Under the pieces are notes generated by a model, which was not told the DNA's origin, ran no database searches, and worked only from the letters and a program-made list of their open reading frames with translations. From an uncultured Clostridia bacterium (GTDB lineage: Bacteria; Bacillota; Clostridia; Oscillospirales; CAG-272), in contig CALWJV010000002.1 of NCBI GenBank assembly GCA_944381115.1, positions 26,800-90,799 of the forward strand: a stretch of DNA of 64,000 nt, given 5' to 3'. Below are positions 3,148 through 45,651 of the stretch, piece by piece. Made by a program: the position numbers and the translations under genes. How positions within the stretch are numbered: position 1 is the first letter of the stretch; every line of letters starts with the position of its first letter.

Positions 3148-3334
3148 TTTTTTTTAGTTTATCATAATTATTTAAAAAAATCAATATTTAATATGCACAA
3201 ATTTATTTCACGTTTTTATTATTTTTGCCAATTAATCTACAAAATCACCGCTTTTAAAACTTTTGCATAAAATATATCAGAAGAATATAGTTTTAAATCA
3301 GTTGCCAACTAAAGGCGGAATGGAGTGTTTATAT

Positions 3335-4547: not shown

Positions 4548-7500
4548 TTATTTAAAGTATTTTACAGCAGATTTAAAGAGTCTCATGTCATACTCGCCAA
4601 AAACATTTTTATAAAGACCGTTTCCAATCCTTTCACTGTGCCCCATCTTACCGATTATTCTGCCATCAGGTGATAGTATACCCTCAATTGCATGCATAGA
4701 ATTATTGGGATTAAAATGTATATCATCCGTTGCGTTTCCATTAAGGTCTACATACTGTGTTGCTATTTGTCCGTTTTCAATAAGCGAGGCAAGTACATTT
4801 TCTTCTCCTATAAAACGTCCTTCACCGTGTGAGATCGGCACGCTGTAAATCTGACCGACCTTGCATCCGTCAAGCCATGGAGACTTATTTGAAGCAACTC
4901 TTATCCTTACAATTCTTGATTGATGACGTCCAATTGTATTAAATGTTAGTGTCGGACAATGTTCGTCGGTATCAATTATCTTACCGTAAGGAACAAGTCC
5001 GAGTTTTATCAGTGCTTGAAATCCGTTACAGATACCGCACATAAGTCCGTCTCTTTTTTCAAGAAGATCCGTCACCTGCTCTTTTATTTCTGTATTTCTT
5101 AAAAATGCGGTAATAAATTTGCCGGACCCATCCGGTTCATCTCCTCCGGAAAATCCACCGGGAATAAATATTATCTGTGATTCAAAAATCTTCTTTGCAA
5201 ACTTCTCTACACTTCGTGAAATTCCATCTGCGCTGAGATTATTTATTACGAATATTTCTGCTTCTGCTCCTGCATCTCTTACTGCCTTTGCAGAGTCAAA
5301 TTCACAGTTTGTCCCCGGAAATACCGGAATAAGCACTTTCGGCTTTGCAAATTTTAAGGCAGGGGCAATACTTATACCTTTGGTATATGAGATGTTTTCT
5401 GCCTTATTACCTTCGGTCTTTATATTACAGGAATATACGCTCTCAAGTTTATCTTCATATATATTTTGAAGCTTATCAAGATCAATAACTTCGTTTTTAT
5501 ATGAAACTGTATATTTTTCCGTCGTATATCCTATTACTTTTTCCGCGTCAACATCATTATCTACCTCTAAAATAAACGATGCGTATTTGTAAGAGAACAT
5601 ATCGGCAAGAGTGATATCATCATTATATTTAAAGCCGATCCTGTTTCCGATAGCCATTTTGAATATAGCTTCGGCAACACCGCCATATCCCGGTGTGTAT
5701 GCGGAAACCGCCTTACCTCTATGTAAAAGTCCGGTTACTTCGCCAAATACCTTGATAAGTGACCCGGCTTTCGGAAGATTATTTTCATCGTATTCCGGTG
5801 ATATCATTATAACTTTTCTTCCCGCTTTCTTGAACTCGGGAGAAACAATATTTTTTACCTTTTCTGTCGTTACTGCAAAGGAAACGAGCGTCGGAGGAAC
5901 ATCAAGGTGCTCAAATGTTCCGCTCATGGAGTCTTTACCGCCGATCGCGGCAACTCCGAGGTCTTTTTGTGCGATAAATGCGCCTAGAAGCGCCGACAGT
6001 GGCTTGCCCCAACGCGCAGGGTCTTTTCCGGGACGTTCGAAATATTCCTGGAATGTAAGGTAAACATCTTTGAACCCGGCACCGGTCGCGATAAGTTTAC
6101 ATACCGATTCAACAACTGCAAGATATGCTCCGTGATATGGGCTTTTTTCAGAAATAAACGGGTTATATCCCCACGCCATAAGTGAACAGTCATCCGTATG
6201 ACCTTTTTCAACGGAGATTTTATGCACCATTGCCTGGATAGGCGTCTGTTGATATTTTCCCCCAAACGGCATAAGTACAGTTCCTGCACCTATTGTTGAA
6301 TCAAATCTTTCGGAAAGCCCGCGCTTTGAGCAGACATTCAGATCTGATACTGTTTTTTCGTATTCTTTTGTAAAAGAAGTACCTGTTTTTTTATCGTATT
6401 TTTTCGGGACTTCAGGTATTATATCAATATGTTTTTCGGCACCGTTTGAATTAAGAAATTCACGGCTTATGTCAACAATTTTATTTCCGTTCCAACTCAT
6501 TGTCAGACGTTTTTCTTTTTTTACTGTTGCAACAACTGTTGCTTCTAAGTTTTCTGCGTTTGCAAGTTTAATAAATGTATCTGCGTCGGCCGGGTCAACA
6601 ACAACTGCCATTCTTTCCTGCGACTCACTTATCGCAAGTTCAGTACCGTCAAGACCGTCATATTTCTTTGGTACTTTATTAAGATCAATTTCCAATCCGT
6701 CCGCAAGTTCTCCGATGGCAACGGAAACACCGCCTGCGCCAAAGTCATTGCATCGTTTTATCATGCGGCTCGCCTCAGCGTTACGGAACAATCTTTGTAA
6801 TTTCCGTTCCTCAGGTGCATTACCTTTTTGTACCTCTGCTCCGCAGGTCTCTATCGATTCAAGTGTGTGGGACTTTGAAGAACCGGTTGCTCCTCCGCAA
6901 CCGTCACGTCCGGTACGACCGCCGAGAAGTATGACTACATCACCCGGCTCCGGACATTCCCTGCGTACATTTTCAGCAGGCGTTGCAGCTATAACTGCTC
7001 CTATCTCCATGCGTTTCGCGGCATATCCGTCATGATAAAGTTCATCAACTATACCGGTTGCAAGTCCTATCTGATTACCATAGGAAGAATAACCCGCAGC
7101 GGCAGTCGCAACTATCTTTCTTTGAGGAAGTTTACCCGGAAGCGTCTCCGATACCGGCTTAAGCGGATCGGCCGCACCGGTAACACGCATTGCACCGTAA
7201 ACATAGGAGCGTCCGGAAAGCGGATCGCGTATCGCGCCGCCGATACATGTCGCCGCACCGCCGAAAGGCTCTATCTCCGTCGGGTGGTTATGTGTTTCGT
7301 TTTTAAAAAGGAGGAGCCACGGCTCGCTTTTACCGTCAACTTCAACATCTATCTTTACTGTACAAGCATTTATCTCTTCAGATTCGTCAAGTTTCTCAAG
7401 TTTTCCGGTCTTTTTCAGATATTTTGCTGCTAGCGTTCCGATGTCCATAAGATTTATCGGCTTTGTCCTGCCCAGTTCTTTACGGGTATTTAAATATTCT

Positions 7501-8237
7501 TCAAATGCAGATTGTAGAAGTTTATCATCAAACTTTACATTGTCTATTGTCGTAAGAAATGTCGTATGACGGCAGTGATCTGACCAATATGTGTCGATCA
7601 TTTTTATTTCGGTTATTGTCGGATCACGATTCTCCTTCTTAAAATATTTTTGGCAAAATATTATATCATCGATATCCATTGCCAGTCCGTACTGCTTGAT
7701 AAAACTTTCAAGTTCTATTTCACTGAGTTCATTAAATCCCTCAATAATTTTTACCGCTGTCGGAATTTCGTAACCTATGTTAAGTGTTTCAGGAAGGTCA
7801 AGTGTCGCTTCTCTTGATTCAACCGGATTGATAACATATTTTTTTATTTCCGAAATATCTTTTTTTGTCAGATTTCCGTAGAGCATATACACCTTTGCTG
7901 TATGGACAATCGGACGTTCTTTTTGAGAAATAAGTTGAATACACTGTGCTGCAGAATCTGCTCTTTGATCAAACTGCCCTGGAAGAAATTCTACTGCAAA
8001 CACTGTCTCGGCGTCATTATCAATACTTTCAGATACAATATCGAGTTGCGGTTCTGATAGAACGGTCTTTTTTATATATTCAAAAAGATCTGCATCTATA
8101 TTTTCAATGTCGTATCTGTTTATTACACGGACGTCCTTAAGTCCTTCAATCCTGAGAAATACCTTTGCATCGGAAAAAAGTGTTTTTGCTTCGTGTGCAA
8201 GTTCCTTTTTCTTTTCTACATATACGCGGTAAACCAT
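4548..8237 (-). CDS. purL: phosphoribosylformylglycinamidine synthase, single-chain large form
   Basis: 1229 aa with AIRS-type domains plus a C-terminal glutaminase containing 'GICNGFQAL'. It is the last gene of the pur operon. Confidence 0.95.
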   Translation of the reverse strand: MVYRVYVEKKKELAHEAKTLFSDAKVFLRIEGLKDVRVINRYDIENIDADLFEYIKKTVLSEPQLDIVSESIDNDAETVFAVEFLPGQFDQRADSAAQCIQLISQKERPIVHTAKVYMLYGNLTKKDISEIKKYVINPVESREATLDLPETLNIGYEIPTAVKIIEGFNELSEIELESFIKQYGLAMDIDDIIFCQKYFKKENRDPTITEIKMIDTYWSDHCRHTTFLTTIDNVKFDDKLLQSAFEEYLNTRKELGRTKPINLMDIGTLAAKYLKKTGKLEKLDESEEINACTVKIDVEVDGKSEPWLLLFKNETHNHPTEIEPFGGAATCIGGAIRDPLSGRSYVYGAMRVTGAADPLKPVSETLPGKLPQRKIVATAAAGYSSYGNQIGLATGIVDELYHDGYAAKRMEIGAVIAATPAENVRRECPEPGDVVILLGGRTGRDGCGGATGSSKSHTLESIETCGAEVQKGNAPEERKLQRLFRNAEASRMIKRCNDFGAGGVSVAIGELADGLEIDLNKVPKKYDGLDGTELAISESQERMAVVVDPADADTFIKLANAENLEATVVATVKKEKRLTMSWNGNKIVDISREFLNSNGAEKHIDIIPEVPKKYDKKTGTSFTKEYEKTVSDLNVCSKRGLSERFDSTIGAGTVLMPFGGKYQQTPIQAMVHKISVEKGHTDDCSLMAWGYNPFISEKSPYHGAYLAVVESVCKLIATGAGFKDVYLTFQEYFERPGKDPARWGKPLSALLGAFIAQKDLGVAAIGGKDSMSGTFEHLDVPPTLVSFAVTTEKVKNIVSPEFKKAGRKVIMISPEYDENNLPKAGSLIKVFGEVTGLLHRGKAVSAYTPGYGGVAEAIFKMAIGNRIGFKYNDDITLADMFSYKYASFILEVDNDVDAEKVIGYTTEKYTVSYKNEVIDLDKLQNIYEDKLESVYSCNIKTEGNKAENISYTKGISIAPALKFAKPKVLIPVFPGTNCEFDSAKAVRDAGAEAEIFVINNLSADGISRSVEKFAKKIFESQIIFIPGGFSGGDEPDGSGKFITAFLRNTEIKEQVTDLLEKRDGLMCGICNGFQALIKLGLVPYGKIIDTDEHCPTLTFNTIGRHQSRIVRIRVASNKSPWLDGCKVGQIYSVPISHGEGRFIGEENVLASLIENGQIATQYVDLNGNATDDIHFNPNNSMHAIEGILSPDGRIIGKMGHSERIGNGLYKNVFGEYDMRLFKSAVKYFK

Positions 8238-8319: not shown

Positions 8320-9585
8320 TTACTTCTTCGCCTTTAATGCTCTTTGACCTATATCTTTACGGTAAAACGCATTTTCAAAATTTACTGTCATAACAATTCC
8401 GTAAGCCTTGTCAATCGCCTCTTTAAGTGTATCTGAAACTGCTGTTACACCTAAAACACGACCTCCTGAAGTTACCATTTTCCCATTTTCAAGTTTCGCT
8501 CCGGCAATGTAAATCTCTCCTTCTGGATTTTCCGGAAGTTTTATCTCAAATCCGGTCTGATATTTCTGCGGGTAACCTGACGACGCCATTACAACGCAAC
8601 AGGCACTTTTATCGGAAAATTTTACCTCCTCCGCTTTAAGAGTACCGTTTGTTACGGACTGCATAACAGAAAGAAGATCGGATTCCAGAAGCGGAAGTAC
8701 GACCTGTGTTTCCGGATCACCGAAACGGCAGTTGTATTCAATTACTTTCGGTCCTTTTGGAGTAAGCATAAGTCCGAAATAGAGGCAGCCTTTGAACATT
8801 CTTCCCTCTGCATTCATCGCCTTTATTGTCGGAAGAAATATTGTTTTCATGCAAATATCTGCTATTTCCTTTGTGTAGTAAGGATTGGGTGCTATCGTAC
8901 CCATTCCCCCTGTATTAAGACCGGTATCGTTATCCCCCGCTCTTTTGTGATCCATTGAAGATACCATCGGAACAATCGTATTTCCGTCAGTAAATGAAAG
9001 GACGGAAACCTCGGGACCTGTCAGAAACTCTTCGATAACGATCTTATTTCCGCTTGCGCCGAATATCTTGTTCTCCATTATGGAATGGACGGCATCAAGT
9101 GCCTCTTCTCTGGTCTGCGCAATAATAACGCCTTTTCCCAGCGCAAGACCGTCTGCTTTTATAACGGTCGGAAGCGGTACGGTTTCAAGATATTTTAACG
9201 CCTCTTCCGGAGAGTCAAACACTTCATATTCCGCAGTCGGAATACCGTATTTTTTCATAAGATTTTTTGAAAAAACCTTACTTCCCTCTATAATAGCGGC
9301 ATTCGCGGTGGGTCCGAAGCACGGAATCCCCGCTTTATTCAGTGAATCGACGGCCCCTAGTACGAGCGGATCGTCCGGAGCGACAACGGCATAGGAAATA
9401 CCGTTTGCTTTTGCAAAATCAACTATTTTATCAATTTCCTTTGCGCCTATCGCAATACATGTTGCATCTTTTGCAATTCCACCGTTTCCGGGAAGTGCAA
9501 AAATTTTTGTAACGTCTTTATTGGCTTTTAATTTTTTTATGATGGCATGCTCCCGCCCGCCACCGCCGACGACCATTATTTTCAT
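8320..9585 (-). CDS. purD: phosphoribosylamine--glycine ligase
   Basis: 421 aa, starts 'MKIMVVGGGGREHAI', ATP-grasp architecture, pur operon context. Confidence 0.95.
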   Translation of the reverse strand: MKIMVVGGGGREHAIIKKLKANKDVTKIFALPGNGGIAKDATCIAIGAKEIDKIVDFAKANGISYAVVAPDDPLVLGAVDSLNKAGIPCFGPTANAAIIEGSKVFSKNLMKKYGIPTAEYEVFDSPEEALKYLETVPLPTVIKADGLALGKGVIIAQTREEALDAVHSIMENKIFGASGNKIVIEEFLTGPEVSVLSFTDGNTIVPMVSSMDHKRAGDNDTGLNTGGMGTIAPNPYYTKEIADICMKTIFLPTIKAMNAEGRMFKGCLYFGLMLTPKGPKVIEYNCRFGDPETQVVLPLLESDLLSVMQSVTNGTLKAEEVKFSDKSACCVVMASSGYPQKYQTGFEIKLPENPEGEIYIAGAKLENGKMVTSGGRVLGVTAVSDTLKEAIDKAYGIVMTVNFENAFYRKDIGQRALKAKK

Positions 9586-9782: not shown

Positions 9783-10964
9783 TTAATGGTGGAACAGTCT
9801 CATTCCGGTAAATGCCATTACAATTCCGTACTTGTTACATGTATCTATTACTATATCGTCTCTGATGGATCCGCCAGACTCAGCAATGTAAGAAACACCG
9901 CTCTTATGCGCTCTTTCTATGTTATCCCCGAACGGAAAGAAAGCATCTGAGCCTAGTGCTACACCGCTTATCTTACTGAGATATTCTTTTGTTTCTTCGT
10001 CCGTAAGCGGGTTCGGTCTGGTCTTGAAATATTTCTGCCAGTTCCCCTCTGCACAGACATCTTCTTCATTTTTGTTGATATAACTGTCTATAACATTATC
10101 TCTGTCAGGTCTACCAAGAGTATCAAGGAAAGGAAGGCTCAATACCTTGTCATGCTGACGCAAGAACCAAGTATCTGCCTTACCACCCGCAAGTCTTGTG
10201 CAATGGATCCTTGACTGTTGTCCGGCACCGACACCAATTGCCTGTCCGTCTACCGCAAAGCAAACGGAGTTTGACTGCGTGTATTTCAGTGTTATGAGCG
10301 AAACTATAAGATCGCGCTTTGCACTGTTTGGCAGATCTTTATTTTCCGTTACGATGTTTGAAAGAAGCGCTTCGTTGATCTCAAAGTTATTTCTTCCCTG
10401 TTCGAATGTTATACCGAAAACCTGTTTTCTTTCCACCGGATCGGGAATGTAGCCCGGATCGATCTCGACAATATTATAATTTCCCTTGCGCTTTGATTTA
10501 AGTATTTCAAGTGCCTCCGGCTCGTATCCGGGAGCGATGATACCGTCGGAAACCTCGCGCTTTATAAGTTTTGCGGTCGTTACATCACAAACATCCGAAA
10601 GTGCTATAAAATCTCCAAACGAACACATTCTGTCCGTTCCTCTTGCTCTTGCATAGGCACATGCAAGGGCAGATTTGTCAAGATCTTTTATATCATCTAC
10701 AAAGCAAGCCTTTTTTAGTTTTTCCGAAAGTGGTGTTCCGACTGCCGCGGATGTGGGGCTTACATGCTTGAACGATGTTGCCGCGGGGAGTGAAAGGGCT
10801 TCCTTAAGTTCCTTTACAAGTTGCCAGGCATTAAAAGCATCGAGAAAGTTTATATAACCAGGTTTTCCGGAAAGTATCTTTATCGGAAGTTCTCCGTTCT
10901 CCATGTATATCCTGGAAGGTTTCTGATTAGGGTTACAGCCGTATTTAAGTTCAAATGAGTTCAT
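9783..10964 (-). CDS. purH: AICAR formyltransferase (PurH formyltransferase domain only; no MGS/IMPCH domain)
   Basis: 393 aa starting 'MNSFELKYGCNPNQKP', which is the start of the AICARFT half of PurH. The MGS-like IMP cyclohydrolase domain is absent. Confidence 0.85.
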   Translation of the reverse strand: MNSFELKYGCNPNQKPSRIYMENGELPIKILSGKPGYINFLDAFNAWQLVKELKEALSLPAATSFKHVSPTSAAVGTPLSEKLKKACFVDDIKDLDKSALACAYARARGTDRMCSFGDFIALSDVCDVTTAKLIKREVSDGIIAPGYEPEALEILKSKRKGNYNIVEIDPGYIPDPVERKQVFGITFEQGRNNFEINEALLSNIVTENKDLPNSAKRDLIVSLITLKYTQSNSVCFAVDGQAIGVGAGQQSRIHCTRLAGGKADTWFLRQHDKVLSLPFLDTLGRPDRDNVIDSYINKNEEDVCAEGNWQKYFKTRPNPLTDEETKEYLSKISGVALGSDAFFPFGDNIERAHKSGVSYIAESGGSIRDDIVIDTCNKYGIVMAFTGMRLFHH

Positions 10965-10995
10965 TTTTTTATCTCCTTATGCATTTATTATAATT

Positions 10996-11721
10996 TCATG
11001 CATTTTTATTGATTACGATTTCGGTGGGCTTACTTCCGTCAAGCGGTATCTGACGGACGAAAAGTGATACTTTATTATCCGCATTAAGATTATTCCAACA
11101 GATATCGGCAAGTTCTTTTGCCGTATTCGGCATTGATACTTCTTCCGGTTCACCATAGAAAGACGGAATTGGATTGCCGTTACACTTATATGTATGAATA
11201 AAATGACCAAATCCGGCTCTGGGTTTATAAGAATAAAAAAATCTGTTACATACTGAACCATCTCCGTTGGCGCTTTTCAGAATCGACATTTCGTAATCAA
11301 ATTTATTTCCGGAGGCGTAATGAAGTATTCCGGAAATACGAGGAGTAAAGTTCGGCGCATCGTCCTCAAATTCACGTGTACGAAGTGCTTTTACGAACGA
11401 GGTGCCGTCATCTCCATGCTCTTTTATATAGTTAAAGATCGTATCTGTCTGATCTCCGTTTGTGATTATATCAATGTTTTCAAGTTTAAGATAAGGGTTA
11501 TAAATAATGAGATGCGGGTCGACCATCTTTGATTCGTCAAACGCCCTTGTTCTCATTCCCGTCTTATGCATTTCGAAAATACGGTTGCGGCTGTTTACGC
11601 TACGTCCCATGATAAAGTAAGCGAAAAGCGCCGATTTTCCGTCCGCGGACTCACCGATAACTATTCCACGACCCGGGTATGTATTTTCACTTAAAAGTGT
11701 GTTTAAATCGTAAAGTGCCAT
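10996..11721 (-). CDS. IMP cyclohydrolase, archaeal PurO-like type
   Basis: 241 aa with 'YPGRGIVIGESADGK..FAYFIMGRSVNSRNRIF', as I recall for the PurO/IMP_cyclohyd family. It sits directly upstream of the AICARFT gene. Confidence 0.8.
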   Translation of the reverse strand: MALYDLNTLLSENTYPGRGIVIGESADGKSALFAYFIMGRSVNSRNRIFEMHKTGMRTRAFDESKMVDPHLIIYNPYLKLENIDIITNGDQTDTIFNYIKEHGDDGTSFVKALRTREFEDDAPNFTPRISGILHYASGNKFDYEMSILKSANGDGSVCNRFFYSYKPRAGFGHFIHTYKCNGNPIPSFYGEPEEVSMPNTAKELADICWNNLNADNKVSLFVRQIPLDGSKPTEIVINKNA

Positions 11722-11737: not shown

Positions 11738-12352
11738 TTAACTTGGATTATTTATAACTTGAGCACAGACCTTCTCGGTCGCCTCCGGCAGTATTATCCA
11801 CTCGGCGTTTTCCATAACTCTGCGTTGAAGTATCTCGGGAGTATCTCCCTCTTCTACCTCTACCGCCTTCTGCATTATTATCTCGCCTCCGTCGGCTATC
11901 TCATTTACATAATGTACGGTGGCTCCGGTAACTTTTACACCGTACGCCAATGCTGCTTCATGAACTTTAAGTCCGTAAAACCCTTCGCCGCAAAAAGAAG
12001 GTATAAGAGACGGATGAACATTGATTATTCTTTTCGGATAGCGGTATGTAAATTTTTCGCTGAGAATACACATAAATCCGGCTAAAACTATAACATCGAT
12101 TTCAGCCTTTGTCAACTTCTCTATTATCTTATTTTCAAATTCCTCTTTTGAGGCACATTCTTTTTTAAGAATGACTGCGGTTTTTATGCCCGATTTTTCC
12201 GCACGTGTCAAAGCATAGGCGTCGGATTTATTGGAGACCACCAGTTTTATCTCTCCGCTTTTTATTATTCCGCTTTTCTGTGCATCGATAAGCGCTTGAA
12301 GATTTGTACCTCCGCCAGAAACAAGTACCGCTATTTTAGCCTTATTCAACAT
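11738..12352 (-). CDS. purN: phosphoribosylglycinamide formyltransferase
   Basis: 204 aa with '[17 protein letters not shown]' and 'INVHPSLIP'. Its start overlaps the purM stop. Confidence 0.9.
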
Positions 12353-13386
12353 ATCGTTACCTTTTCCTCTGACTTGACGATCTCGCCCATGATATATGCG
12401 TCTTCGCCGTTTGCCTTGAGTACTTCTATTGCCTTATTTGCTTCGTCTTTCTTAACCACGACGCTCATGCCTACGCCCATATTGAATGTATTGAACATAT
12501 CCCTTTCCGGAATATTTCCGGTCTTTGCGATCAGATCGAAGATTGGTAAAATATTCAATGCCTTTTTCTCAATCTTCGCACCGAGTCCATCTGGAAGGCT
12601 TCTCGGTATGTTTTCATAAAAACCTCCGCCGGTTATATGAGATATGGAGCGGACGGTTACCTTATCTATAATATCAAGAATGGGTTTGACATATATCTTC
12701 GTAGGTGTAAGAAGTGTCTCACCTACGCATTTTCCGCCGAGTTCCGCAACCGGAACGGTAATGTCCTTATCACCTACACCGAATATCTTGCGAACAAGCG
12801 AAAAACCGTTAGAGTGAACCCCGCTTGATTTGAGCGCGATTATAATGTCACCTGGCTCCATAGTCTTCGGGTTAAGAATTTTCGGCTTATCGACAACACC
12901 TACGGAAAATCCTGCAAGGTCGTATTCATCTATCGGATAAAAACCGGGCATTTCGGCAGTCTCACCGCCGATAAGGGCAGACCCGCTTTGTACACATCCC
13001 TCGCTTACGCCTGATACAATTGACGCAATTTTTTCCGGTATATTTTTTCCACATGCTATGTAATCAAGGAAAAAAAGAGGTTTTGCGCCGCAACATATAA
13101 CATCGTTTACACACATTGCAACACAGTCGATACCTACCGTATCATGCTTGTCCATAATAAATGCAAGTTTTAGTTTTGTACCTACTCCGTCTGTCCCGCT
13201 TACAAGTACCGGCTTTTCCATTCCCTTTACATCGAGTTCAAAAAGCCCTCCAAAACCTCCAACGTCGGAACATACACCACTTGTAACTGTTCTTGCAATA
13301 TGTGCCTTCATTAGTTCAACCGCTTTATATCCGGCGGTTATATCTACTCCTGCGGCAGCATAACTTTCTGATTTTGAATTTAACAT
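12346..13386 (-). CDS. purM: phosphoribosylformylglycinamidine cyclo-ligase (AIR synthetase)
   Basis: 'YAAAGVDI', 'GGFGGLF', 'GTDGVGTK'. I prefer ATG at 13386 (AAAGGAAA RBS 9 nt upstream) to the GTG at 13419 given by the track. Confidence 0.9.
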
Positions 13387-13434: not shown

Positions 13435-14859
13435 TTAACCTTTTCCGTTCCAACAGTATGTGCATATCTTGGAGGGGTCGATCCCTATCGCCTTAATCAT
13501 ACCGTCAAGAGTCTGGTATTCAAGTGAGTCAAAATGCATTTTTTCACATACCGCTTTTCTGAATGCCTTACCGCGTTCGGTCGTTCCGTCGCAGTATTCA
13601 TCGATGTACTCAAAGCCCTTTTTACCTTCAAGTTCCATAATTATCCTTCTCCCGAGAAGGTCCATATCCGACGTATTTCTGGAAAAGTTAAGGTATTTAC
13701 AGCCGTACATTATCGGTGGACAAGCCGAACGGATATGTACTGACTTTGCGCCGCATTCGTAAAGAAAGTCTACCGTTTCGCGTAACTGCGTTCCGCGGAC
13801 TATACTGTCATCAACGAACATCAGGTCTTTTCCGTCGATGAGTTCGGTGATCGGTATCTGCTTCATCTTCGCAATTTTGTTTCTTTCTTCCTGATTGGAA
13901 GGAATAAAACTTCTCGCCCATGCAGGAGTATATTTTATAAGAGGTCTTGCAAACTGCTTTCCGCATCCGAATGCGTATCCCATGGCATGAGGCGTTCCGG
14001 AATCCGGCACTCCGCAAACATAGTCAACATCAGGAAGAGTTCCGTTTGCCATCTCCTGCTCTGCCATTATCCTTCCGTTCTGCACTCGCATCATCTCAAC
14101 ATTAACGCCTTCATATGTGGCATTCGGGAATCCGTAATATGTCCAAAGGAACGCGCAGATCTTCATTTCATCATTTCCCGGATCAAGTACTGTGATCCTA
14201 CTCTTTGACATCTCTACTATTTCACCGGATCGCAGTTCCTTATATTCCTTGAACCCTAGTTTTTTATATGCAAATGATTCAAACGAAACGCAGAATCCGT
14301 TGTCATTTTTTCCGATACTTACCGGAAGCCGTCCGTATTTGTCTCTTGCGGCTATAAGTTCTCCGTCTTCCTTTAATATGAGGATTGACGCAGATCCTTC
14401 AATATTTTCCTGAGCAAATTTTATTCCCTCGGCAATAGTCGGTTTTCGCTCGATTAGTGCTGCAATGATCTCCGCTGAGTTAACTTTGTTACCACCCATA
14501 CTTTGAAGAATTCCGAAATTATTCTTCAAATAACGGTCAACGATATCTTCGCTGTTTAAAATATAGCCTACCAAGGTAATAGCGTAAATTCCGAATTTTG
14601 ACTTAATAAGGATCGGAATTGGATCTGAATCACTTATACAACCTATACACGCCCTTCCCTTTAGCCGTTCAGTTATATTATCAAATTTTGTCCTGAAAGG
14701 AGTATTCTCTATATTGTGAATTTCGGAATTAAATCCGAGTTGATCATCAAAAGAAGCCATTCCTCCTCTTGCTTTGCCGAGATGTGAATGATAATCAACT
14801 CCGAAAAATACATCTTGTACACAGTCCCTGTCACTTGTTATGCCAAAAAAACCACCCAT
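13435..14859 (-). CDS. purF: amidophosphoribosyltransferase-like protein (PurF family, lacks Cys1)
   Basis: 474 aa in the purF slot, with PRTase motifs 'VPDSG' and 'FVDDSIVRGT' and a C-terminal 'CTYCWNG'. The N-terminus is MGGFFG rather than MCG. GGAGG lies 6 nt upstream of the ATG. Confidence 0.8.
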   Translation of the reverse strand: MGGFFGITSDRDCVQDVFFGVDYHSHLGKARGGMASFDDQLGFNSEIHNIENTPFRTKFDNITERLKGRACIGCISDSDPIPILIKSKFGIYAITLVGYILNSEDIVDRYLKNNFGILQSMGGNKVNSAEIIAALIERKPTIAEGIKFAQENIEGSASILILKEDGELIAARDKYGRLPVSIGKNDNGFCVSFESFAYKKLGFKEYKELRSGEIVEMSKSRITVLDPGNDEMKICAFLWTYYGFPNATYEGVNVEMMRVQNGRIMAEQEMANGTLPDVDYVCGVPDSGTPHAMGYAFGCGKQFARPLIKYTPAWARSFIPSNQEERNKIAKMKQIPITELIDGKDLMFVDDSIVRGTQLRETVDFLYECGAKSVHIRSACPPIMYGCKYLNFSRNTSDMDLLGRRIIMELEGKKGFEYIDEYCDGTTERGKAFRKAVCEKMHFDSLEYQTLDGMIKAIGIDPSKICTYCWNGKG

Positions 14860-14887
14860 TTGTCAGCCTCCGGATAAATTTATGAGA

Positions 14888-15571
14888 TTATGCGAAAAAT
14901 AATTCAGATAGCATCATCGGATCAATATACTTACCATCTTTGTAAACTCTCATATTTCCCGATGCTATTTCATCAATGAGTATTACTTCATTTCCGTCAT
15001 AACCAAATTCAAACTTAATATCATATAAGACAAGACCTTTTTCAAAAAGGTCATCAGCAATGATTTTTGTAATCTTCTGAGTCATGTCTTTTATTGCATC
15101 ATACTGCTCTCCACTCATTACTCCAAGGTCAATAAGTCCATCTTTTGTTACGAGCGGATCGCCTTTTTCATCATTTTTAAATGTCATTTCAACATAAGAA
15201 GGTAAATCCGCTCCCTCTTCAATATAGTCGCTGTATCTGCGGAAAAAACTTCCCACAGCCTTATTTCTGCAAATTACTTCAAGTCCTTTTCCAAACGGTT
15301 TTGCCGGAATAACCTCCATAGTTGTATCACCAAGATTTGCACTTATGTAGTGAGTTTTAATCCCAGCTTTTTTTAATTTTTCAAAATAATAAACTGACAT
15401 CTTTAGATTTACTGCTCCAACGCCTTCAATGGTAAGTCCTACAGAATTTTCTCCGGGATCAAATTTACCATCCTTACCGGTGCAGTCATCTTTAAACTTT
15501 AATAAATAATTCCCATTGGCAAGTTCAAACACGTTTTTTGTTTTTCCTACATATACAAGTTTTTTATCCAT
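14888..15571 (-). CDS. purC: phosphoribosylaminoimidazole-succinocarboxamide synthase
   Basis: 227 aa; 'GKTKNVF..' at the N-terminus and the length are typical of SAICAR synthetase. Operon context supports the call. Confidence 0.9.
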
Positions 15572-15584
15572 GTCTTTTACCTCT

Positions 15585-16079
15585 TTATTTATTTAACTGT
15601 GTTTCAAGCATTGCGTCTTTTTCAAGTACTTTGGCTTTATCTGCTGCTCTTTTTTTATCAAGTGCCTCAGCAAGTCCAGAGTCATTGACAGCAAGCATCT
15701 GTAAACATAAAAGAGCGGCATTGGCTGCACCGTTCACTGCAACTGTTGCTATTGGTATTCCTGTAGGCATCTGTACAGTTGATAAAAGTGCATCAATACC
15801 GCCGAGGGTTCCGGATGCTACGGGGATTCCCACAACCGGAAGAGTCGTATTAGCGGCTATAGCTCCCGCAAGGTGAGCTGCCATACCGGCAGCCGCAATT
15901 ATTGCTCCGAATCCGTTCTTTCGTGCTGATTTTGTAAATTCCGCTGCTTCGACCGGAGTTCTGTGCGCAGAAAAAACATGTACCTCATATGGCACCCCGA
16001 ACTCTGCCAAAACATTTATCGCTTTTTGTACGATCGGTAGATCGCTGTCACTTCCCATAATAATGGCAATTTTTTTCAT
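15585..16079 (-). CDS. purE: 5-(carboxyamino)imidazole ribonucleotide mutase (class-I-like PurE)
   Basis: 164 aa with 'IIMGSDSD' and '[24 protein letters not shown]' (an AAHL-type class I signature). It is the first gene of the operon. Confidence 0.9.
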
Positions 16080-16122
16080 CTCTACATTTCCTTTAGTTAT
16101 TTTTAAAAAATATTACTTTATT

Positions 16123-16151
16123 ATTGTATCATATATTATATTGATTGTCAA
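16123..16151 (-). promoter_or_regulatory. sigma-A-type promoter of the pur operon
   Basis: On the minus strand: TTGACA (16151-16146), 17 nt, TACAAT (16128-16123). This is ~40 nt upstream of the purE ATG. Confidence 0.6.
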
Positions 16152-16253
16152 GTGGCTATTTTTCCAAAATTCGTCTTTTTACGCATAAATATTTAGTTAA
16201 ACTTTTGCTGTATTTTTTTATAATTGTTTTTTAATTTATAAAAAAACTAAATT

Positions 16254-16325
16254 AAAAAAACGGCATTTTATTCAAAGATTTCAAAAACGTTTTGTCTTTG
16301 ATAACTCCTTTAGAATAAAATACCG
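16254..16325 (-). terminator. terminator after nfnB
   Basis: Arms cggcattttattc (16261-16273) and gaataaaataccg (16313-16325) have one mismatch and enclose a large structured loop. A 7-nt T-run follows on the minus strand. Confidence 0.5.
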
Positions 16326-16336
16326 GTTTTCCGTTA

Positions 16337-17734
16337 TTATTTTCCTTGTATGTACTCATCAATGGCTGTTGCCGCTTTTTTTCCTGCTCCCATAGCAAGT
16401 ATTACTGTAGCCGCTCCTGTAACGGCATCACCTCCGGCGTAAACTCCCTCAAGAGATGTTTTACCGTTTTCATCTGCAATTATTCCTCCCCATTTTTCGG
16501 TCATAAGTCCATCAGTCGTTGATTTAATAAGCGGGTTAGGTGAAGTTCCAATTGCCATAATTACACAGTCGCAGTCAAGTTCTATTTTTGATCCTTTTTT
16601 CTCGATTGGTCTGCGTCTTCCTGAAGCATCCGGCTCTCCGAGTTCCATTTCGGAACATATAAGTTTTGAAACAAAGCCGTTTTCATCTCCTACTATTTCT
16701 GTGGGATTGGTAAGTACTTTAAATTCAATTCCTTCTTCTTTTGCATGCTCGATTTCTTCGCGACGTGCAGGAAGTTCTGCCTCAGAACGTCTGTATACTA
16801 TACAAACTCTTTCGGCTCCGAGCCTTTTTGCGCATCTTGCGGCGTCCATTGCAACATTTCCACCTCCGACTACCATTGCTGCTTTGGGTCTTTCAATCGG
16901 AGTTGCGCTGTTTTCAAGATATGCCTTCATAAGATTTACTCTGGTCAAAAACTCGTTTGCGGAATATACGCCTTTGAGGTTTTCACCGGGTATTTTCATA
17001 AATCTTGGAAGTCCCGCTCCCGAACCTATAAATACAGCCTCATAACCGTATTTTTTCATAAGTTCTTCAACCGACAGCGTCTTTCCTATTATCGTATTTG
17101 TGGAAATTTCAACACCAATCTTTTTGAGTCCGTCAATTTCTCTCTGTACTATTTCTTTCGGAAGTCTAAACTGTGGAATACCGTATTCAAGAACTCCGCC
17201 TGCTACATGAAGTGCCTCAAAAACAGTAACTTTGTACCCTTTTTTTGCAAGATCTCCGGCACATGTAAGTCCAGAAGGACCTGAGCCTATTACAGCGACT
17301 TTATGTCCGTTCGGTACAGGTATTTCAGGCTCTTTGCTGCTGTGCGCATTGTGGTAATCGGCAACAAACCGCTCAAGCCTGCCTATGGCGACCGGCTCAC
17401 CTTTTATACCTCTTATACACTTCGATTCACACTGTGTTTCCTGAGGACAAACACGTCCGCAAACGGCAGGAAGCGAACTTGAACGGGAAATAACTTCATA
17501 TGCATTTTCAAATTCTCCTTTTGCAACGTAGGAGATAAAACCGGGAATATCAATATTTACCGGACATCCGCTTACGCAAAGCGGCTTTTTGCAATTCAAA
17601 CAGCGCTTTGCCTCATCTACCGCCATTTCAGGTGTATATCCAAGTGCAACTTCCTCAAAATTTTTATTTCTTACTTCGGGATCCTGAGTGGGCATATCAT
17701 TTTTCTTTAAAGACATATTAGCCATTTTAAACAT
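16337..17734 (-). CDS. nfnB: NADH-dependent reduced ferredoxin:NADP+ oxidoreductase subunit B (GltD-like)
   Basis: 465 aa with two Cys clusters ('CLNCKKPLCVSGCP', 'CGRVCPQETQCESKC') plus FAD/NAD(P) Rossmann motifs 'VAVIGSGPSGL'. It is paired with an NfnA-type gene. The exact start among three nearby ATGs is uncertain. Confidence 0.75.
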   Translation of the reverse strand: MFKMANMSLKKNDMPTQDPEVRNKNFEEVALGYTPEMAVDEAKRCLNCKKPLCVSGCPVNIDIPGFISYVAKGEFENAYEVISRSSSLPAVCGRVCPQETQCESKCIRGIKGEPVAIGRLERFVADYHNAHSSKEPEIPVPNGHKVAVIGSGPSGLTCAGDLAKKGYKVTVFEALHVAGGVLEYGIPQFRLPKEIVQREIDGLKKIGVEISTNTIIGKTLSVEELMKKYGYEAVFIGSGAGLPRFMKIPGENLKGVYSANEFLTRVNLMKAYLENSATPIERPKAAMVVGGGNVAMDAARCAKRLGAERVCIVYRRSEAELPARREEIEHAKEEGIEFKVLTNPTEIVGDENGFVSKLICSEMELGEPDASGRRRPIEKKGSKIELDCDCVIMAIGTSPNPLIKSTTDGLMTEKWGGIIADENGKTSLEGVYAGGDAVTGAATVILAMGAGKKAATAIDEYIQGK

Positions 17735-17801: not shown

Positions 17802-18644
17802 TTACCGCGGTTGCTGATTCAATAGATGACAAGTCTTTTCGCGTGCTTCTTTTTCAAAATCTCTGTACATGGAACCTCTTGCCATTGCCTCATCAAAATC
17901 TACAAGATGCCCGTCAAAATCCGGACCGTCGACACAGGCAAATTTAGTTTCGCCGCCTACCGTAAGACGGCATCCTCCGCACATACCTGTACCGTCAATC
18001 ATAATTGGGTTCATACTGACAACTGTTTTTATTCCGTGTTCCTTTGTAAGTTTGCATACGAACTTCATCATAATCAGTGGACCTATCGCGATTACTTCAT
18101 CATAAGTTTCCCCTTCTTCAATAAGAGTTTTCAATGCATCGGTAACAAGTCCTTTTTTTCCTGCAGTTCCGTCATCACTCATTAAAATGAACCTGTCACT
18201 CACACTTTTAAACTCATCTTCCAGAATAACGAGATCTTTTGATCGAAATCCCACAATTGTATGTACTGTCGCACCGCTTTGATGAAGTTTCTTTGCAACA
18301 GGATAAGCGATCGCAGATCCGACTCCTCCTCCTATAACGGCAACTTTTTTTAATCCATCTGTCTCAGACGGTCTTCCAAGCGGACCCGCAAAATCGCATA
18401 TATATTCCCCTTCGTTCATTGCCGCGAGTTTTTGCGTCGTTGCTCCGACGGCTTGTGCTATAATAGTAATTGTTCCTTTTTCTCTATCGTAATCTGCAAT
18501 GGTAAGCGGTATCCTCTCTCCTTCGGCATCTGTACGAAGTATAATAAACTGACCCGGTTCTGCCTTTGCGGCAATAAGCGGTGCCTCGATTTCAAAAAGC
18601 GTGACAGTGGGATTTAATATTTTTTTCCTTAAAATCTTATTCAT
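17802..18644 (-). CDS. nfnA: NfnA / sulfide-dehydrogenase-like FAD-NAD-binding subunit with a C-terminal 2Fe-2S Cys motif
   Basis: 280 aa with a ferredoxin-reductase-like fold ('GQFIILR', 'IGGGVGSAI') and 'GTGMCGGCR'. It lies immediately upstream of nfnB. Confidence 0.75.
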   Translation of the reverse strand: MNKILRKKILNPTVTLFEIEAPLIAAKAEPGQFIILRTDAEGERIPLTIADYDREKGTITIIAQAVGATTQKLAAMNEGEYICDFAGPLGRPSETDGLKKVAVIGGGVGSAIAYPVAKKLHQSGATVHTIVGFRSKDLVILEDEFKSVSDRFILMSDDGTAGKKGLVTDALKTLIEEGETYDEVIAIGPLIMMKFVCKLTKEHGIKTVVSMNPIMIDGTGMCGGCRLTVGGETKFACVDGPDFDGHLVDFDEAMARGSMYRDFEKEAREKTCHLLNQQPR

Positions 18645-18656: not shown

Positions 18657-19397
18657 TTATCTTCCTCTTCGGCCGCCTTTGAATCCTTCGCCTCGACTTC
18701 TGCCGCCGCTTCTGTTGCCGTGGAAAGAACTTGATTTTATAACGCTTACAGTTACAAACTTTCCCACAAAAGAGTCATTACTGACTTTAAGGTCAAGTTT
18801 TGCATATCTGTCGAGCGGATATTTTTCTGAACGTATTTTTTTGTTATATGAATAAATGATGCATCCGACAAAAATACCTGTAATTAAAATCGCAACTGCA
18901 ATAGCAATTGCAAAAATCGCAAAAAAATCAGTACGGCATTCATATGCACAAAGTTCCATACACCTTATAATGCCAGCTTTGTAATTTCCTGATTTTATGT
19001 TTTTATACACCCCGGGATCATCAAGAATCTCAAAATGTTCATCATAACTTATTTTTTTATAACTTTTTCCGTATTCATATATATTGTAATTGCGGCTCTC
19101 GTTGTCTGTAACGATAATTACTATAATATCCCCTTGCGGTATGCTTTCTTCGTTTAAAAAATCGTCACCTTGATAATTTTCATAATTTTCGCTGTCATCG
19201 GTTACTACGTAAATTGCGGAAAAACTATCCTCAAAATATTTTTTTGCTTCGGCTTCTATTTCTGATTCTTCAGCAGTTGTGAGAATATCCGCTTTATCGT
19301 ATACTATCTTTTCCCTTTGATCTTTTTTACAAGAATTTAAAAAAAATACAGAAAAAACTATCAGTATAAACATGTATGCGATATATTTTTTTCTCAT
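18657..19397 (-). CDS. TPM-domain (YgcG/YdjH-like) lipoprotein with a C-terminal TM helix and Gly/Arg-rich tail
   Basis: It has a lipobox 'FFLNSC', a TPM-like 'ADILTTAEESEIEAEAKKY..IYVVTDD', a TM helix near the C-terminus and the tail 'GNRSGGRSRGEGFKGGRRGR'. An ATGA start/stop overlap joins it to the upstream gene. Confidence 0.55.
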   Translation of the reverse strand: MRKKYIAYMFILIVFSVFFLNSCKKDQREKIVYDKADILTTAEESEIEAEAKKYFEDSFSAIYVVTDDSENYENYQGDDFLNEESIPQGDIIVIIVTDNESRNYNIYEYGKSYKKISYDEHFEILDDPGVYKNIKSGNYKAGIIRCMELCAYECRTDFFAIFAIAIAVAILITGIFVGCIIYSYNKKIRSEKYPLDRYAKLDLKVSNDSFVGKFVTVSVIKSSSFHGNRSGGRSRGEGFKGGRRGR

Positions 19398-20449
19398 AAG
19401 AATATTCCTCCTATAAGACCGACAACCGTAGCAACAACCGTAAAAAGTCCCGATGCTGCTATCGCAAGTTTTTTTATACTTATAGGGAGTCTTCCGTAAA
19501 TCTTTCCGGTATACCCATTCATCGCATATGTATACATTTTATTTTTTGTTCTGTAATTCAATATCCATACCGGCATAAGTGAATATTCCCAGTTACATCG
19601 GGCGATCGCAAGTTTATTTTCCGACACTGAAACCGATGAATAACCTCCGATCGTATCTCTTAAAAGTGTAAAAGCATAATTGTTCATTCTTGCTTTTACC
19701 TCTTCAAAGATCTTATCCCGTTCAATATCTCTCTTTTTTGCGGCAAATCCGGAAAGATACGACATATTAAATGGCTGAAGGGAGTCAGACGGATACGGCA
19801 ATATACCTTCCAGCATTTCTTTATCATCTTCTGAAAACGCGGATGTCACTATATCTTCAAAATGAATATATCCTGCTCTTTCAACACGGTATCTTGATGT
19901 TTCGGTATATTGCTTGTTCCCAACGCGCCATGTTCTTATTTTAGTTGCATCTGCATTCATAGACCCGTTTGTATCTGCATCTACTACCCAAAAAGGATAA
20001 TAAATTCCGGCAATTTTCTCAGCATGTTTTTTTGAAGTAAAATCTTTAGGCAAAAACCATCTCTTTTTTACAAACTTTAAAAATTTGTTTTGTGCCTCTT
20101 CTTTACCGTATTTGAAAGGTATTACTTTATCCGGCTTCATCTGCCCGGAAAGTTTTCCCTTAAGGATTACCGGACTGTCACAGTAAATACAAATCCCTGC
20201 TGCTGTATTTTCGTCGACTGAAATTTCAGCTCCGCAGTTTGTACATGTGTATTCGTTGATATGATCGCAGTATTCAGCATCAGCCTTTGCTTTTTGATCT
20301 TTAATGTAGCCGGCACCGGTTGCTTCTATTTCGTCGCCTGTAAACTCCGATTCGCAAAATTCGCAGCAAAGTTTTTGCTTATCTGAATTAAAATAAAGTT
20401 CCGCACCGCAGTTTGGGCAGTTGTATGTAACCGTTACGGTCCCATTCAT
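19394..20449 (-). CDS. double zinc-ribbon protein with a C-terminal membrane anchor (YdjG-like architecture)
   Basis: Two CxxC..CxxC ribbons ('CPNCGAE..CEFC', 'CTNCGAE..CIYC') and the C-terminal TM 'LAIAASGLFTVVATVVGLIGGIFL'. I prefer ATG 20449 (GGAG 7 nt upstream) to 20467. Confidence 0.55.
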   Translation of the reverse strand: MNGTVTVTYNCPNCGAELYFNSDKQKLCCEFCESEFTGDEIEATGAGYIKDQKAKADAEYCDHINEYTCTNCGAEISVDENTAAGICIYCDSPVILKGKLSGQMKPDKVIPFKYGKEEAQNKFLKFVKKRWFLPKDFTSKKHAEKIAGIYYPFWVVDADTNGSMNADATKIRTWRVGNKQYTETSRYRVERAGYIHFEDIVTSAFSEDDKEMLEGILPYPSDSLQPFNMSYLSGFAAKKRDIERDKIFEEVKARMNNYAFTLLRDTIGGYSSVSVSENKLAIARCNWEYSLMPVWILNYRTKNKMYTYAMNGYTGKIYGRLPISIKKLAIAASGLFTVVATVVGLIGGIFL

Positions 20450-20492
20450 ATTAATTCTCCAAACCATATATTATATTTGATTTAACATTTTA

Positions 20493-23002: not shown

Positions 23003-24322
23003 TTAACCCTCAAAATCCATTTTCACTAATGTTTCAAAAATAAGAGGTCTTTTCTCCCTCCGCTTTTCCGAAATTACGGTTGATGCGAGTAGCCTTTCTT
23101 CGGAACTGTCAAACAGATTCTGATCATTTGCATAAAGGACCGCAATTACATCACCTTTTTTCACGTAATCTCCGGTTTTCTTACGTAGAATAATTCCGGC
23201 AGTACTGTCGATCTTGTCGTCTTTTTTATTTCTTCCCGCACCGAGAAGCAGCGCCGACATACCATATCCTTCAGCGTCAACTGAAGTTATATATCCTTCC
23301 TCTTCGACAGTTATATTTCTGCTGTATTTTGCTTTTGGAAATTTATCCGTATCTTTTATTAGTTCGGTATCTCCGCCCTGTGCTTTTACCATCTTTATAA
23401 AAGTCTGCAGGGCCTTTCCGTCTTTCAGTGACATTCTTACTTTTTTTTCACATTCTTTATAACTGCCATTTCCTGCAAGGTATAAAATATTTGCCGAAAG
23501 CGCTACAGAAAGTTCGGTAAGATCTTCGGGACCGTTTCCCTTAAGTGTTTCAATTGCCTCAATAACTTCAAGAGAGTTACCTATGGTATTTCCCAGCGGT
23601 TTATCCATATCGGTTATCAGTGCCGCAATCCTCTTACCGGCTCTTACACCTATATCAACCATGATTTTAGCAAGTTCACGGCTTTCTTCAATATTTTTCA
23701 TAAAGGCACCGCTTCCTGTTTTGACATCAAGTACTATACAGTCATCATCGGCGGCAAGTTTTTTCCCCATTATACTTGATGCTATGAGAGGAAGACTGTC
23801 AACAGTTGCTGTGACATCGCGCAAAGCATAAAGCATTTTATCAGCAGGAGCAAGTTCGGCACTCTGACTTACAACCGCAATTCCTGTATCATTGACTGTC
23901 TTTTCAAATTCTTCTTCCGAAAGTTCTGTATTAAATCCGGTAATTGATTCAAGTTTATCAATTGTGCCACCGGTATGCCCAAGTCCTCTTCCGCTCATTT
24001 TGGCAACAGTAACGCCAAGACTTGCCACGGTAGGTGCTACTATAAGCGTCGTTTTGTCACCCACACCTCCTGTTGAATGCTTATCAGCCTTTATCCCTTT
24101 TATTCCAGAAAGATCGAGTTTTTCACCGGATTCGCATATTGCTTTTGTTAAAGAAAAAGTCTCCTCCGCGCTCATTCCTTTAAAAAATATCGCCATACAA
24201 AGTGCAGATGCCTGATAATCGGGAATCTCTCCTTTAACATACCTGTTTATAAAGAAAAAAATTTCTTCTTTACTGAGTTCCATACCGTCTCTTTTTTTCT
24301 TGATTATATCGTACATCCTCAT
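23003..24322 (-). CDS. pdp: pyrimidine-nucleoside (thymidine) phosphorylase
   Basis: 439 aa with 'DKHSTGGVGDKTT' and 'GRGLGHTGGTIDKLE'. Confidence 0.9.
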   Translation of the reverse strand: MRMYDIIKKKRDGMELSKEEIFFFINRYVKGEIPDYQASALCMAIFFKGMSAEETFSLTKAICESGEKLDLSGIKGIKADKHSTGGVGDKTTLIVAPTVASLGVTVAKMSGRGLGHTGGTIDKLESITGFNTELSEEEFEKTVNDTGIAVVSQSAELAPADKMLYALRDVTATVDSLPLIASSIMGKKLAADDDCIVLDVKTGSGAFMKNIEESRELAKIMVDIGVRAGKRIAALITDMDKPLGNTIGNSLEVIEAIETLKGNGPEDLTELSVALSANILYLAGNGSYKECEKKVRMSLKDGKALQTFIKMVKAQGGDTELIKDTDKFPKAKYSRNITVEEEGYITSVDAEGYGMSALLLGAGRNKKDDKIDSTAGIILRKKTGDYVKKGDVIAVLYANDQNLFDSSEERLLASTVISEKRREKRPLIFETLVKMDFEG

Positions 24323-24366
24323 ATTTTTTTACTCCATGCAGTTTAAGATAAAAAATTTTACTTAAC

Positions 24367-24789: not shown

Positions 24790-24858
24790 GATATTTCCTT
24801 TTTTAAAACTTATATTTTTATATCTTCAATTCATTTTTATGTTCTCTAGAAAATACTT

Positions 24859-26019: not shown

Positions 26020-26062
26020 TTTAACTTTTCCTTATGATTTTATTAACATCGTCAAAATTTTT

Positions 26063-26773: not shown

Positions 26774-26798
26774 ATTTCTTCCTTTCTCAGTAGGCTTT

Positions 26799-45592: not shown

Positions 45593-45622
45593 TTTATAAG
45601 CCTCATTTGTTATTTTAAGTTC

Positions 45623-45651
45623 ATTATACAATATTTTTTGTATTATTTCAA
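45623..45651 (-). promoter_or_regulatory. sigma-A-type promoter of the 342-aa hypothetical gene
   Basis: Minus strand: TTGAAA, 17 nt, TATAAT. Confidence 0.55.

Follow-up and report, generated by a model that had tools for sequence, protein, structure and literature searches.

The 64-kb stretch of DNA analysed here (the window) belongs to contig CALWJV010000002.1 of an uncultured Clostridia bacterium and carries on its minus strand an operon for purine synthesis. In this operon the place of purF is taken by what is, by sequence, a distant homologue of PurF with glycine at the position of the catalytic N-terminal cysteine (Cys1). PurF is the glutamine-dependent, feedback-regulated entry point to purine synthesis. 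The gene, whose product we refer to as the Cys-less PurF, its start region and its two domains, an N-terminal nucleophile (Ntn) fold and a phosphoribosyltransferase (PRTase), are located as follows.

13435..14859, minus strand: Cys-less PurF homologue of 474 aa, stop codon included (TIGR01134 152 bits; best PDB match 1ao0)
14867..14871, minus strand: GGAGG ribosome-binding site, read from the sequence, 7 nt 5' of ATG 14859
14863..14865, minus strand: in-frame TGA, two codons 5' of the ATG
14854..14856, minus strand: codon 2, GGT (Gly), at the catalytic Cys1 position by alignment; never Cys in 33 family members
14176..14859, minus strand: N-terminal Ntn-fold domain with degenerate glutaminase site, residues 1-228 (alignment; fold retained in the AlphaFold model)
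13438..14175, minus strand: C-terminal type I PRTase domain with the Fe-S ligand segments, residues 229-474 (alignment, AlphaFold model)

A preliminary description of this DNA, made from its letters, had stated that the only PurF of the operon lacks Cys1, that it sits in the purF slot between purC and purM, and that its start is well supported. Gene order bears out the position, and in the HMMER alignment to Bacillus subtilis PurF (1ao0) Gly2 falls on Cys1, while HSHLGK stands where the LQHRGQ block, already described as unrecognisable, would lie. The other motifs quoted at the time were all recovered, namely VPDSG (residues 284-288), FVDDSIVRGT (348-357), KICAF (C235), GCKYLNF (C387) and CTYCWNG (C466, C469). 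The protein begins MGGFFGITSDRDC, with an MGGFFG start; the GGAGG motif and the in-frame TGA both support the assigned ATG, and the TGA excludes an upstream start, an N-terminal extension or a Cys-bearing propeptide. The GC content of the gene (0.42) equals that of the neighbouring pur genes. Searches by tblastn with the PurF proteins of Escherichia coli and B. subtilis found no second PurF-like locus in the window, so that the word 'only' holds for the operon and for the 64 kb around it.

Alignment to these two proteins and comparison with profiles for the glutaminase and PRTase domains, which the preliminary description had proposed, returned PurF homology together with sub-threshold scores. 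The protein reaches 152.1 bits with TIGR01134, below the equivalog cut-off of 350, and falls slightly under the gathering scores of both Pfam GATase_7 (22.8 versus 25) and Pribosyltran (18.4 versus 26.3). Its closest solved structure is B. subtilis PurF 1ao0 (E 2.7e-37), followed by the Arabidopsis enzyme, with E. coli PurF at E 7e-20. The AlphaFold model (predicted local distance difference test, pLDDT, 80; predicted template modelling score, pTM, 0.73) has the two-domain Ntn plus type I PRTase fold, and its nearest folds are all PurF, the full-length Fe-S-type structures 6lbp, 1ao0 and 1gph matching with template modelling (TM) scores of 0.74-0.77 and E about 1e-30. Confidence is low in the cluster-ligand loops and in the loop binding phosphoribosyl pyrophosphate (PRPP), as expected for a model without cofactors.

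Loss of the glutaminase site and conservation of the PRTase half

The residue roles of the PurF glutamine site are taken from the E. coli and B. subtilis structures, in which Arg26, the Arg73/Tyr74 loop, the Asn101-Gly102 oxyanion hole and Asp127 (E. coli numbering) are glutamine-site residues. We compared 33 diverse members of the Cys-less family with seven canonical-type PurFs: the E. coli and B. subtilis enzymes, three encoded in related operons and two database representatives that have Cys1. The following differences were found at the glutamine site (E. coli numbering; state in the family; state in the window protein).

Cys1: Gly in 13, Ser in 13, Thr in 3 and Ala in 2 of 33, never Cys; Gly2
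Arg26: Leu in 26/33; Leu27
Arg73-Tyr74-Pro-Thr76...Ser80 loop, 8 residues: deleted in 33/33; deleted
Asn101: Val, Asp, Ala or Ser; Val97 (Gly98 kept)
Asp127: Ser, Gln, Met or Val; Ser128

Cys1 is thus not the sole loss, since Arg26, the Arg73-Tyr74 loop, Asn101 and Asp127 are gone as well; as read from these alignments, the glutaminase site has been lost as a unit, and glutamine-dependent synthesis of phosphoribosylamine (PRA) is predicted to be absent. The preliminary description had also considered that another nucleophile might replace Cys1. This is unlikely, because the position is Gly here and Gly, Ser, Thr or Ala in the family, and the residues that bind glutamine are missing too. Ser or Thr as a substitute Ntn nucleophile, brought to mind by the existence of MSG and MTG members, was likewise rejected as a general mechanism, given that about half of the family has Gly or Ala and that the glutamine-binding residues are missing in all. 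On the other hand, residues with a structural role in the domain are retained (Gly2, Gly5, His25, Gly27, Gln86-Pro87, Gly102, Asn106 and Glu129). Position 2 of the family admits only small residues, all of which permit removal of the initiator Met, and this suggests that the N-terminus still must pack into the core of the fold. The family also has marks of its own, with the signature DYHSH at residues 22-26 and family-specific invariant positions at D22, Y23, H48, F59, G145, S156, S317, A330, Q358, L359 and W470.

The C-terminal half presents a different picture. The elements that identify it as a PRTase of the B. subtilis Fe-S type are these.

13786..13812, minus strand: PRPP-binding loop D350-D351-S352-I-V-R355-G-T-Q358 (D351, S352 and R355 in 33/33)
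14155..14157, minus strand: Cys235, aligned with the B. subtilis [4Fe-4S] ligand Cys236 (33/33)
13699..13701, minus strand: Cys387, aligned with B. subtilis Cys382 (33/33)
13453..13464, minus strand: Cys466-x-x-Cys469 (CTYC), corresponding to B. subtilis CLAC, Cys437 and Cys440 (32/33 and 33/33)

Within the 33-member family, the flexible-loop residues K309, R316, S317, Q323, R326 and K333, the segment P285-D286-S287-G288, the loop residues D350/D351-S352-I-V-R355-G-T and the positions F237, Y241 and V354 are invariant or nearly so. The canonical appearance of the PRTase half, noticed earlier from the letters of this one protein, therefore extends to the catalytic and PRPP-loop residues of the whole comparison set, and the four cysteines expected for a B. 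subtilis-type cluster are aligned and kept in 33, 33, 32 and 33 of 33 members. Departures from the canonical sequence do occur beside the PRPP loop, with the canonical Thr (T374) changed to Gln (Gln358 in the window protein) in all 33 members and S375 to Leu in 29.

These last changes, together with the TIGR01134 score of 152 against a cut-off of 350 and the presence of a nucleoside salvage (deo) cluster in the window, might indicate that the enzyme transfers the phosphoribosyl group of PRPP to a different acceptor, or has some other role, while PRA or purines are obtained otherwise, for instance by salvage. We regard this as quite improbable: the remaining de novo genes are intact and co-oriented, the pathway would then miss its first step, linkage of the Cys-less gene to pur genes recurs in two phyla, and the closest folds are without exception PurF.

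Extent of the family and the operon slot it occupies

The Cys-less PurF is widespread. When 1.84 billion representatives at 50% identity were searched, 495 matched at E<1e-30; among the best 150 of these 495, most full-length matches start M-[G/S/T/A]-G and have DYHSHLG replacing LQHRGQ, the canonical proteins with Cys and LQHRGQ appearing only toward the bottom of that match list. The closest homologues (68-87% identity) start MGG[FIL][FIL]G in 120 of 120 cases, and a single 90%-identity cluster of the family counts 3,295 members. The database name of these proteins is 'amidophosphoribosyltransferase'. Among the hosts given by name are Pseudoflavonifractor capillosus ATCC 29799, Agathobaculum, Oscillibacter and Muribaculaceae. 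The MGGFFG proteins that the preliminary description mentioned from Bacteroides and Clostridia have their counterpart in related ones found in Clostridia and Bacteroidales. The features that define the subfamily, namely the M-[GSTA]-G start, DYHSH, the 8-residue deletion, DDSIVRGTQ and the four Fe-S cysteines, are all present in the window protein, and a neighbour-joining (NJ) tree places the Cys-less proteins as a monophyletic group relative to canonical outgroups. Three further 50%-identity representatives (P0229, P0240 and P0268) lack Cys1, with MAG, MITG or MGG starts, and yet retain a motif that is LQHRG-like or QHLG; these proteins may be intermediate forms or Cys-less lineages of independent origin.

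Purifying selection acts on this protein. In 19 operons that carry a Cys-less and a canonical PurF side by side, mean identity was calculated over the same 150 divergent genome pairs for both proteins. The N-terminal domain gave 0.718 for the Cys-less and 0.704 for the canonical PurF, and the C-terminal domain 0.819 and 0.727, respectively; the dead domain is thus as constrained as an active glutaminase domain. A pseudogene or a decaying duplicate was discarded on this ground, conservation being equal to or higher than that of the canonical PurF of the same genomes. It is true that a single G to T change in GGT would yield TGT. Nevertheless, the probability that the missing cysteine reflects such an error, a wrong start, an overlooked propeptide or a pseudogene is practically negligible in view of the upstream stop, the MGG start of all 120 close homologues, the joint loss of five glutaminase features and the full-length reading frame under purifying selection.

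A scan of species-representative genomes with the window protein, with each matched locus viewed over ±10 kb, gave 80 loci, all from metagenome-assembled genomes (MAGs) of gut or rumen Clostridia, the best match having 73% identity. Pur neighbours in the gene order of the window were present at 76 of the 80 loci, and at 73 of these 76 the Cys-less protein is the sole PurF homologue. At the three others a canonical, propeptide-bearing PurF (MRKINEE|CGVFG...LQHRGQ) adjoins it. With the canonical PurF of one of these loci (L065) as query, a scan of metagenome contigs returned another 80 loci, the majority sharing this operon layout; 60 of the 80 have the canonical gene only and 20 have both in tandem. 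The tandem loci are:

L008:8552-11425
L045:10001-12914
L065:10001-12853
L086-L115 (20 loci)

Both genes are intact in the tandems, where the Cys-less one lies mostly upstream of its canonical neighbour and downstream of it in L008. The operon slot therefore exists in three states, with the Cys-less PurF alone, with both, or with the canonical PurF alone, and the two proteins behave as alternative fillers of one slot, since the canonical PurF of relatives occupies the same place. About 31% identity between the two within one operon indicates that their split is ancient. The Cys-less-only operon is also present in a cultured type strain, P. capillosus ATCC 29799 (GCA_000169255.2), and in Bacteroidales the gene directly follows purL. 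Two of the Clostridia-type operons (L079 and L081, 60% identity to the window protein) are labelled as MAGs of 'uncultured Alistipes sp.' and of 'uncultured Sutterella sp.'; the contigs in question are probably mis-binned.

The tandem operons of relatives make a paired role with a canonical PurF possible. In its strongest form, the Cys-less protein would be a non-catalytic or regulatory paralogue that works only with a canonical PurF encoded elsewhere, for example as one subunit of a mixed tetramer, where it would adjust feedback inhibition or stability. The 23 related operons with both genes adjacent and intact fit this idea, as do an N-terminal domain conserved without its catalytic residues and the case of the crenarchaeal PurF', which always accompanies PurF (PMC3261824). 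We nonetheless consider it unlikely. The Cys-less protein stands alone in the slot at 73 of 76 genome loci, and relatives have their canonical PurF within the operon in nearly all cases, so that a hidden second copy is not what one would generally expect. Invariant catalytic residues in the PRPP and flexible loops would not be needed by a subunit with a purely regulatory task. Moreover, the state switches between solo and tandem at least six times on the NJ tree of the Cys-less proteins without visible change in the protein.

Split amidotransferases such as PurL/PurQ and PdxS/PdxT are common, and the conserved vestigial site could serve as a docking surface, which makes it conceivable that NH3 is delivered in trans by a separate glutaminase or another nitrogen donor instead of being drawn from bulk ammonia. 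The gene neighbourhoods render this improbable. No conserved partner gene or glutaminase accompanies the Cys-less PurF in the 100 operon loci (80 + 20), and no free glutaminase was found in the 64-kb window; the partner suggested in the preliminary description thus has no conserved counterpart in related loci. Three genes of the family stand alone, without pur genes or common neighbours (L038:10001-11422, L041:4901-6325 and L072:~10001-11428), and these too lack a conserved candidate.

Proposed function and its precedents

The reading that we favour, with a probability of about 0.6, is that the Cys-less PurF is a glutamine-independent, ammonia-dependent PRPP aminotransferase that would supply the operon with its first committed step. 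The conserved C-terminal type I PRTase domain would convert PRPP and NH3 into PRA and pyrophosphate (PPi). The N-terminal Ntn-fold domain would have lost glutamine hydrolysis and would probably persist in a structural role, needed to complete the PRTase site as well as the oligomer and the [4Fe-4S] site, perhaps also offering NH3 a route of entry or a regulatory site. Ammonia-rich anaerobic guts and rumens are the habitat of the hosts, and free NH3 could there stand in for glutamine. From the residue pattern, the predicted fold, the occupancy of the slot and these habitats, we infer that NH3 would be the substrate and that the enzyme would be self-sufficient; as for the role of the N-terminal domain, this and our other functional statements draw on sequence, predicted structure and context.

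Biochemical precedent makes this proposal reasonable. The PurF reaction consists of two half-reactions, the second of which (PRPP + NH3 -> PRA + PPi) is carried out by the PRTase domain, and the wild-type enzyme PPAT uses ambient NH3 (PMC12017579). According to the account given in PMC3261824, E. coli Cys1 mutants lose the glutamine-dependent activity and keep the NH3-dependent one (Mei & Zalkin 1989), and it is this activity that makes PRA from ammonia a reasonable reading for the natural protein. The mutants are an engineered equivalent, restricted to NH3-dependent PRA synthesis. They differ in that they were made in the laboratory by point mutation and have a glutamine site that is otherwise intact, whereas the Cys-less PurF is an ancient lineage occurring in nature, its entire site remodelled and eight residues deleted.

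The nearest characterised relatives are the B. subtilis-type [4Fe-4S] PurFs (EC 2.4.2.14; 1ao0/1gph; Arabidopsis 6lbp), which share the two-domain fold, the four cluster cysteines, the PRPP-loop and flexible-loop residues and the operon position. Unlike them, the Cys-less protein has neither Cys1 nor a propeptide, has lost the glutamine-site residues and scores below the TIGR01134 cut-off. It begins at the position equivalent to Cys1, whereas its canonical neighbours in relatives carry propeptides (MRKINEE|CG). Since it departs from that family in Cys1, the glutamine site and the curated score, we refrain from classing it among the glutamine amidotransferases; most likely, to judge from its sequence, it works like the PRTase half of one. 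By analogy only, NadE without a glutaminase domain is an NH3-dependent NAD+ synthetase that uses free ammonia in some lineages (cf. PMC6946656). The likeness lies in an amidotransferase reaction run on free ammonia; in NadE the whole glutaminase domain has been lost, whereas the Cys-less PurF keeps a dead one, and keeps it conserved.

The preliminary description had presented a noncanonical first step of purine synthesis as a possible novelty. Its free-NH3 reading remains plausible from the sequence, but the concept is not new: for PurF' of Crenarchaeota, a PurF-like protein without the N-terminal Cys, an ammonia-dependent PRPP aminotransferase activity was put forward as a hypothesis by Brown et al. 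(2011, Biol Direct 6:63; PMC3261824). The two cases are alike in the missing cysteine, in clustering with purine genes and in the ammonia proposal. PurF' differs in having Ala or Val at the Cys position and in always co-occurring with a true PurF; the bacterial group has Gly (Gly, Ser, Thr or Ala in the family), differs by its hosts among gut Clostridia and Bacteroidales, and usually occupies the purF slot alone. A Cys1-bearing PurF next to the Cys-less one, the hallmark of PurF', is found nowhere in the 64-kb window and at 3 of the 80 related genome loci. In the full-text literature we found no characterisation of a bacterial Cys-less subfamily and no follow-up of the PurF' hypothesis, the archaeal proposal being the only mention.

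Several observations weigh against an enzyme that acts alone on ammonia. The literature searched contains no enzyme assay or genetic test of any family member. The glutaminase of purL in the same operon is intact, so that glutamine scarcity alone cannot account for the loss at the first step. Canonical purF genes without pur neighbours exist at three relatives' loci (L145, L147 and L149), which makes an extra-operon copy possible. Stable tandem operons (23 loci) show that the two proteins are not simply interchangeable and would also fit a hetero-oligomer. Finally, the 'dead' N-terminal domain is strongly conserved with its own invariant D22, Y23, H48 and F59, which a pure scaffold role does not explain; the striking conservation of D22, Y23, H26, H48 and F59 near the former glutamine pocket is left without explanation by the ammonia proposal as formulated above. 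A bolder version would turn these residues into a new site: the Cys-less PurF would be the sole committed-step enzyme in many gut and rumen Clostridia, and its N-terminal domain would capture or gate NH4+, or free nitrogen from a non-glutamine donor by a non-Ntn mechanism. We mention it as a speculation that is rather unlikely to be correct.

If the Cys-less PurF does work on ammonia by itself, purine synthesis would have a committed step no longer tied to the glutamine pool in a large share of the dominant gut and rumen anaerobes, among them Oscillospiraceae, Ruminococcaceae, Acutalibacteraceae and Christensenellales. This would alter the view of how nitrogen status controls nucleotide synthesis in the carriers, metabolic models that now assign EC 2.4.2.14 with glutamine would need change, and the family would offer a natural case of an amidotransferase in which selection maintains a dead glutaminase domain. 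PurF is also a drug target, for instance in Mycobacterium tuberculosis (PMC12328218). As cultured carriers exist (P. capillosus ATCC 29799, Agathobaculum), the hypothesis is directly testable.

The pur operon of the window and its surroundings

The operon runs on the minus strand in the order purE, purC, Cys-less purF, purM, purN, a gene for a PurO-like protein, purH, purD and purL. The flanking genes were named by NCBIfam models, above cut-off except for purC and the PurO-like protein, a putative inosine monophosphate (IMP) cyclohydrolase. The purH product is an aminoimidazole carboxamide ribonucleotide (AICAR) formyltransferase; that of purL is a formylglycinamidine ribonucleotide (FGAM) synthase.

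15585..16079, minus strand: purE, first gene of the operon (TIGR01162 188 bits, above cut-off)
14888..15571, minus strand: purC, divergent short form of 227 aa (TIGR00081 114 bits versus cut-off 190; GC 0.34)
12346..13386, minus strand: purM, likely start ATG 13386 as in related loci; the mechanical open reading frame (ORF) reaches GTG 13419
11738..12352, minus strand: purN (NCBIfam)
10996..11721, minus strand: PurO-like IMP cyclohydrolase (score 43 versus cut-off 150; the orthologue at locus L166 has PF07826)
9783..10964, minus strand: AICAR formyltransferase-only PurH (NF005492, 689 bits)
8320..9585, minus strand: purD (NCBIfam)
4548..8237, minus strand: purL, single-chain FGAM synthase with intact glutaminase nucleophile (GICNGFQ, Cys1070)

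Because purL of the same operon retains its glutaminase nucleophile, the loss is specific to step 1. The GC content of purC contrasts with values of 0.41-0.45 in the other pur genes, and at many related loci the PurC is of another, typical kind (MEK..QLYEGKAKK) or escapes detection with the window purC as query; the gene may have been replaced or be xenologous. The final two purine steps are split between the archaeal-type PurO-like IMP cyclohydrolase and the formyltransferase-only PurH (9783-11721, minus strand), a division kept in most related operons, and the split purO/purV arrangement is discussed in PMC6486802. In the 257-nt leader of purE (16080-16336) Rfam gave no riboswitch match at the gathering threshold, and with the limit relaxed to E<=1 no credible match appeared either; this covers purine, ZTP and PRPP riboswitches as well as the T-box.

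Directly 5' of purE lie genes for a GltD-like protein (16337-17734) and for a 280-aa Fe-S/flavin adenine dinucleotide (FAD) protein of the dihydroorotate dehydrogenase B (DHODB) type (17802-18644), both on the minus strand. TIGR01316 names the former 'NADPH-dependent glutamate synthase', and the two genes were considered as a nitrogen link to the operon; this was rejected, as the pair resembles an NfnAB/SudAB-type oxidoreductase instead. With the small subunit as probe, a homologue was found near purE at 17 of the 80 genome loci, in the same orientation at 16.

Farther away, a deo-like nucleoside salvage cluster (23003-27470, minus strand) comprises a pyrimidine-nucleoside phosphorylase, a phosphopentomutase-type metalloenzyme, a member of the purine nucleoside phosphorylase family and a DeoC aldolase; purine salvage by the host is probably also possible. 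A PfkB kinase is encoded at 27715-28812. The window also carries a formate-tetrahydrofolate ligase gene (41280-42941, minus strand), whose product could supply 10-formyltetrahydrofolate to PurN and PurH. Three ORFs of 355-373 aa, at 3263-4384 (plus strand), 19394-20467 (minus strand) and 44564-45631 (minus strand), are without Pfam match at E<=1e-6. The second of them contains several CxxC pairs as well as a hydrophobic segment at its C-terminus, and shares 4 nt with an overlapping TPM-domain gene.

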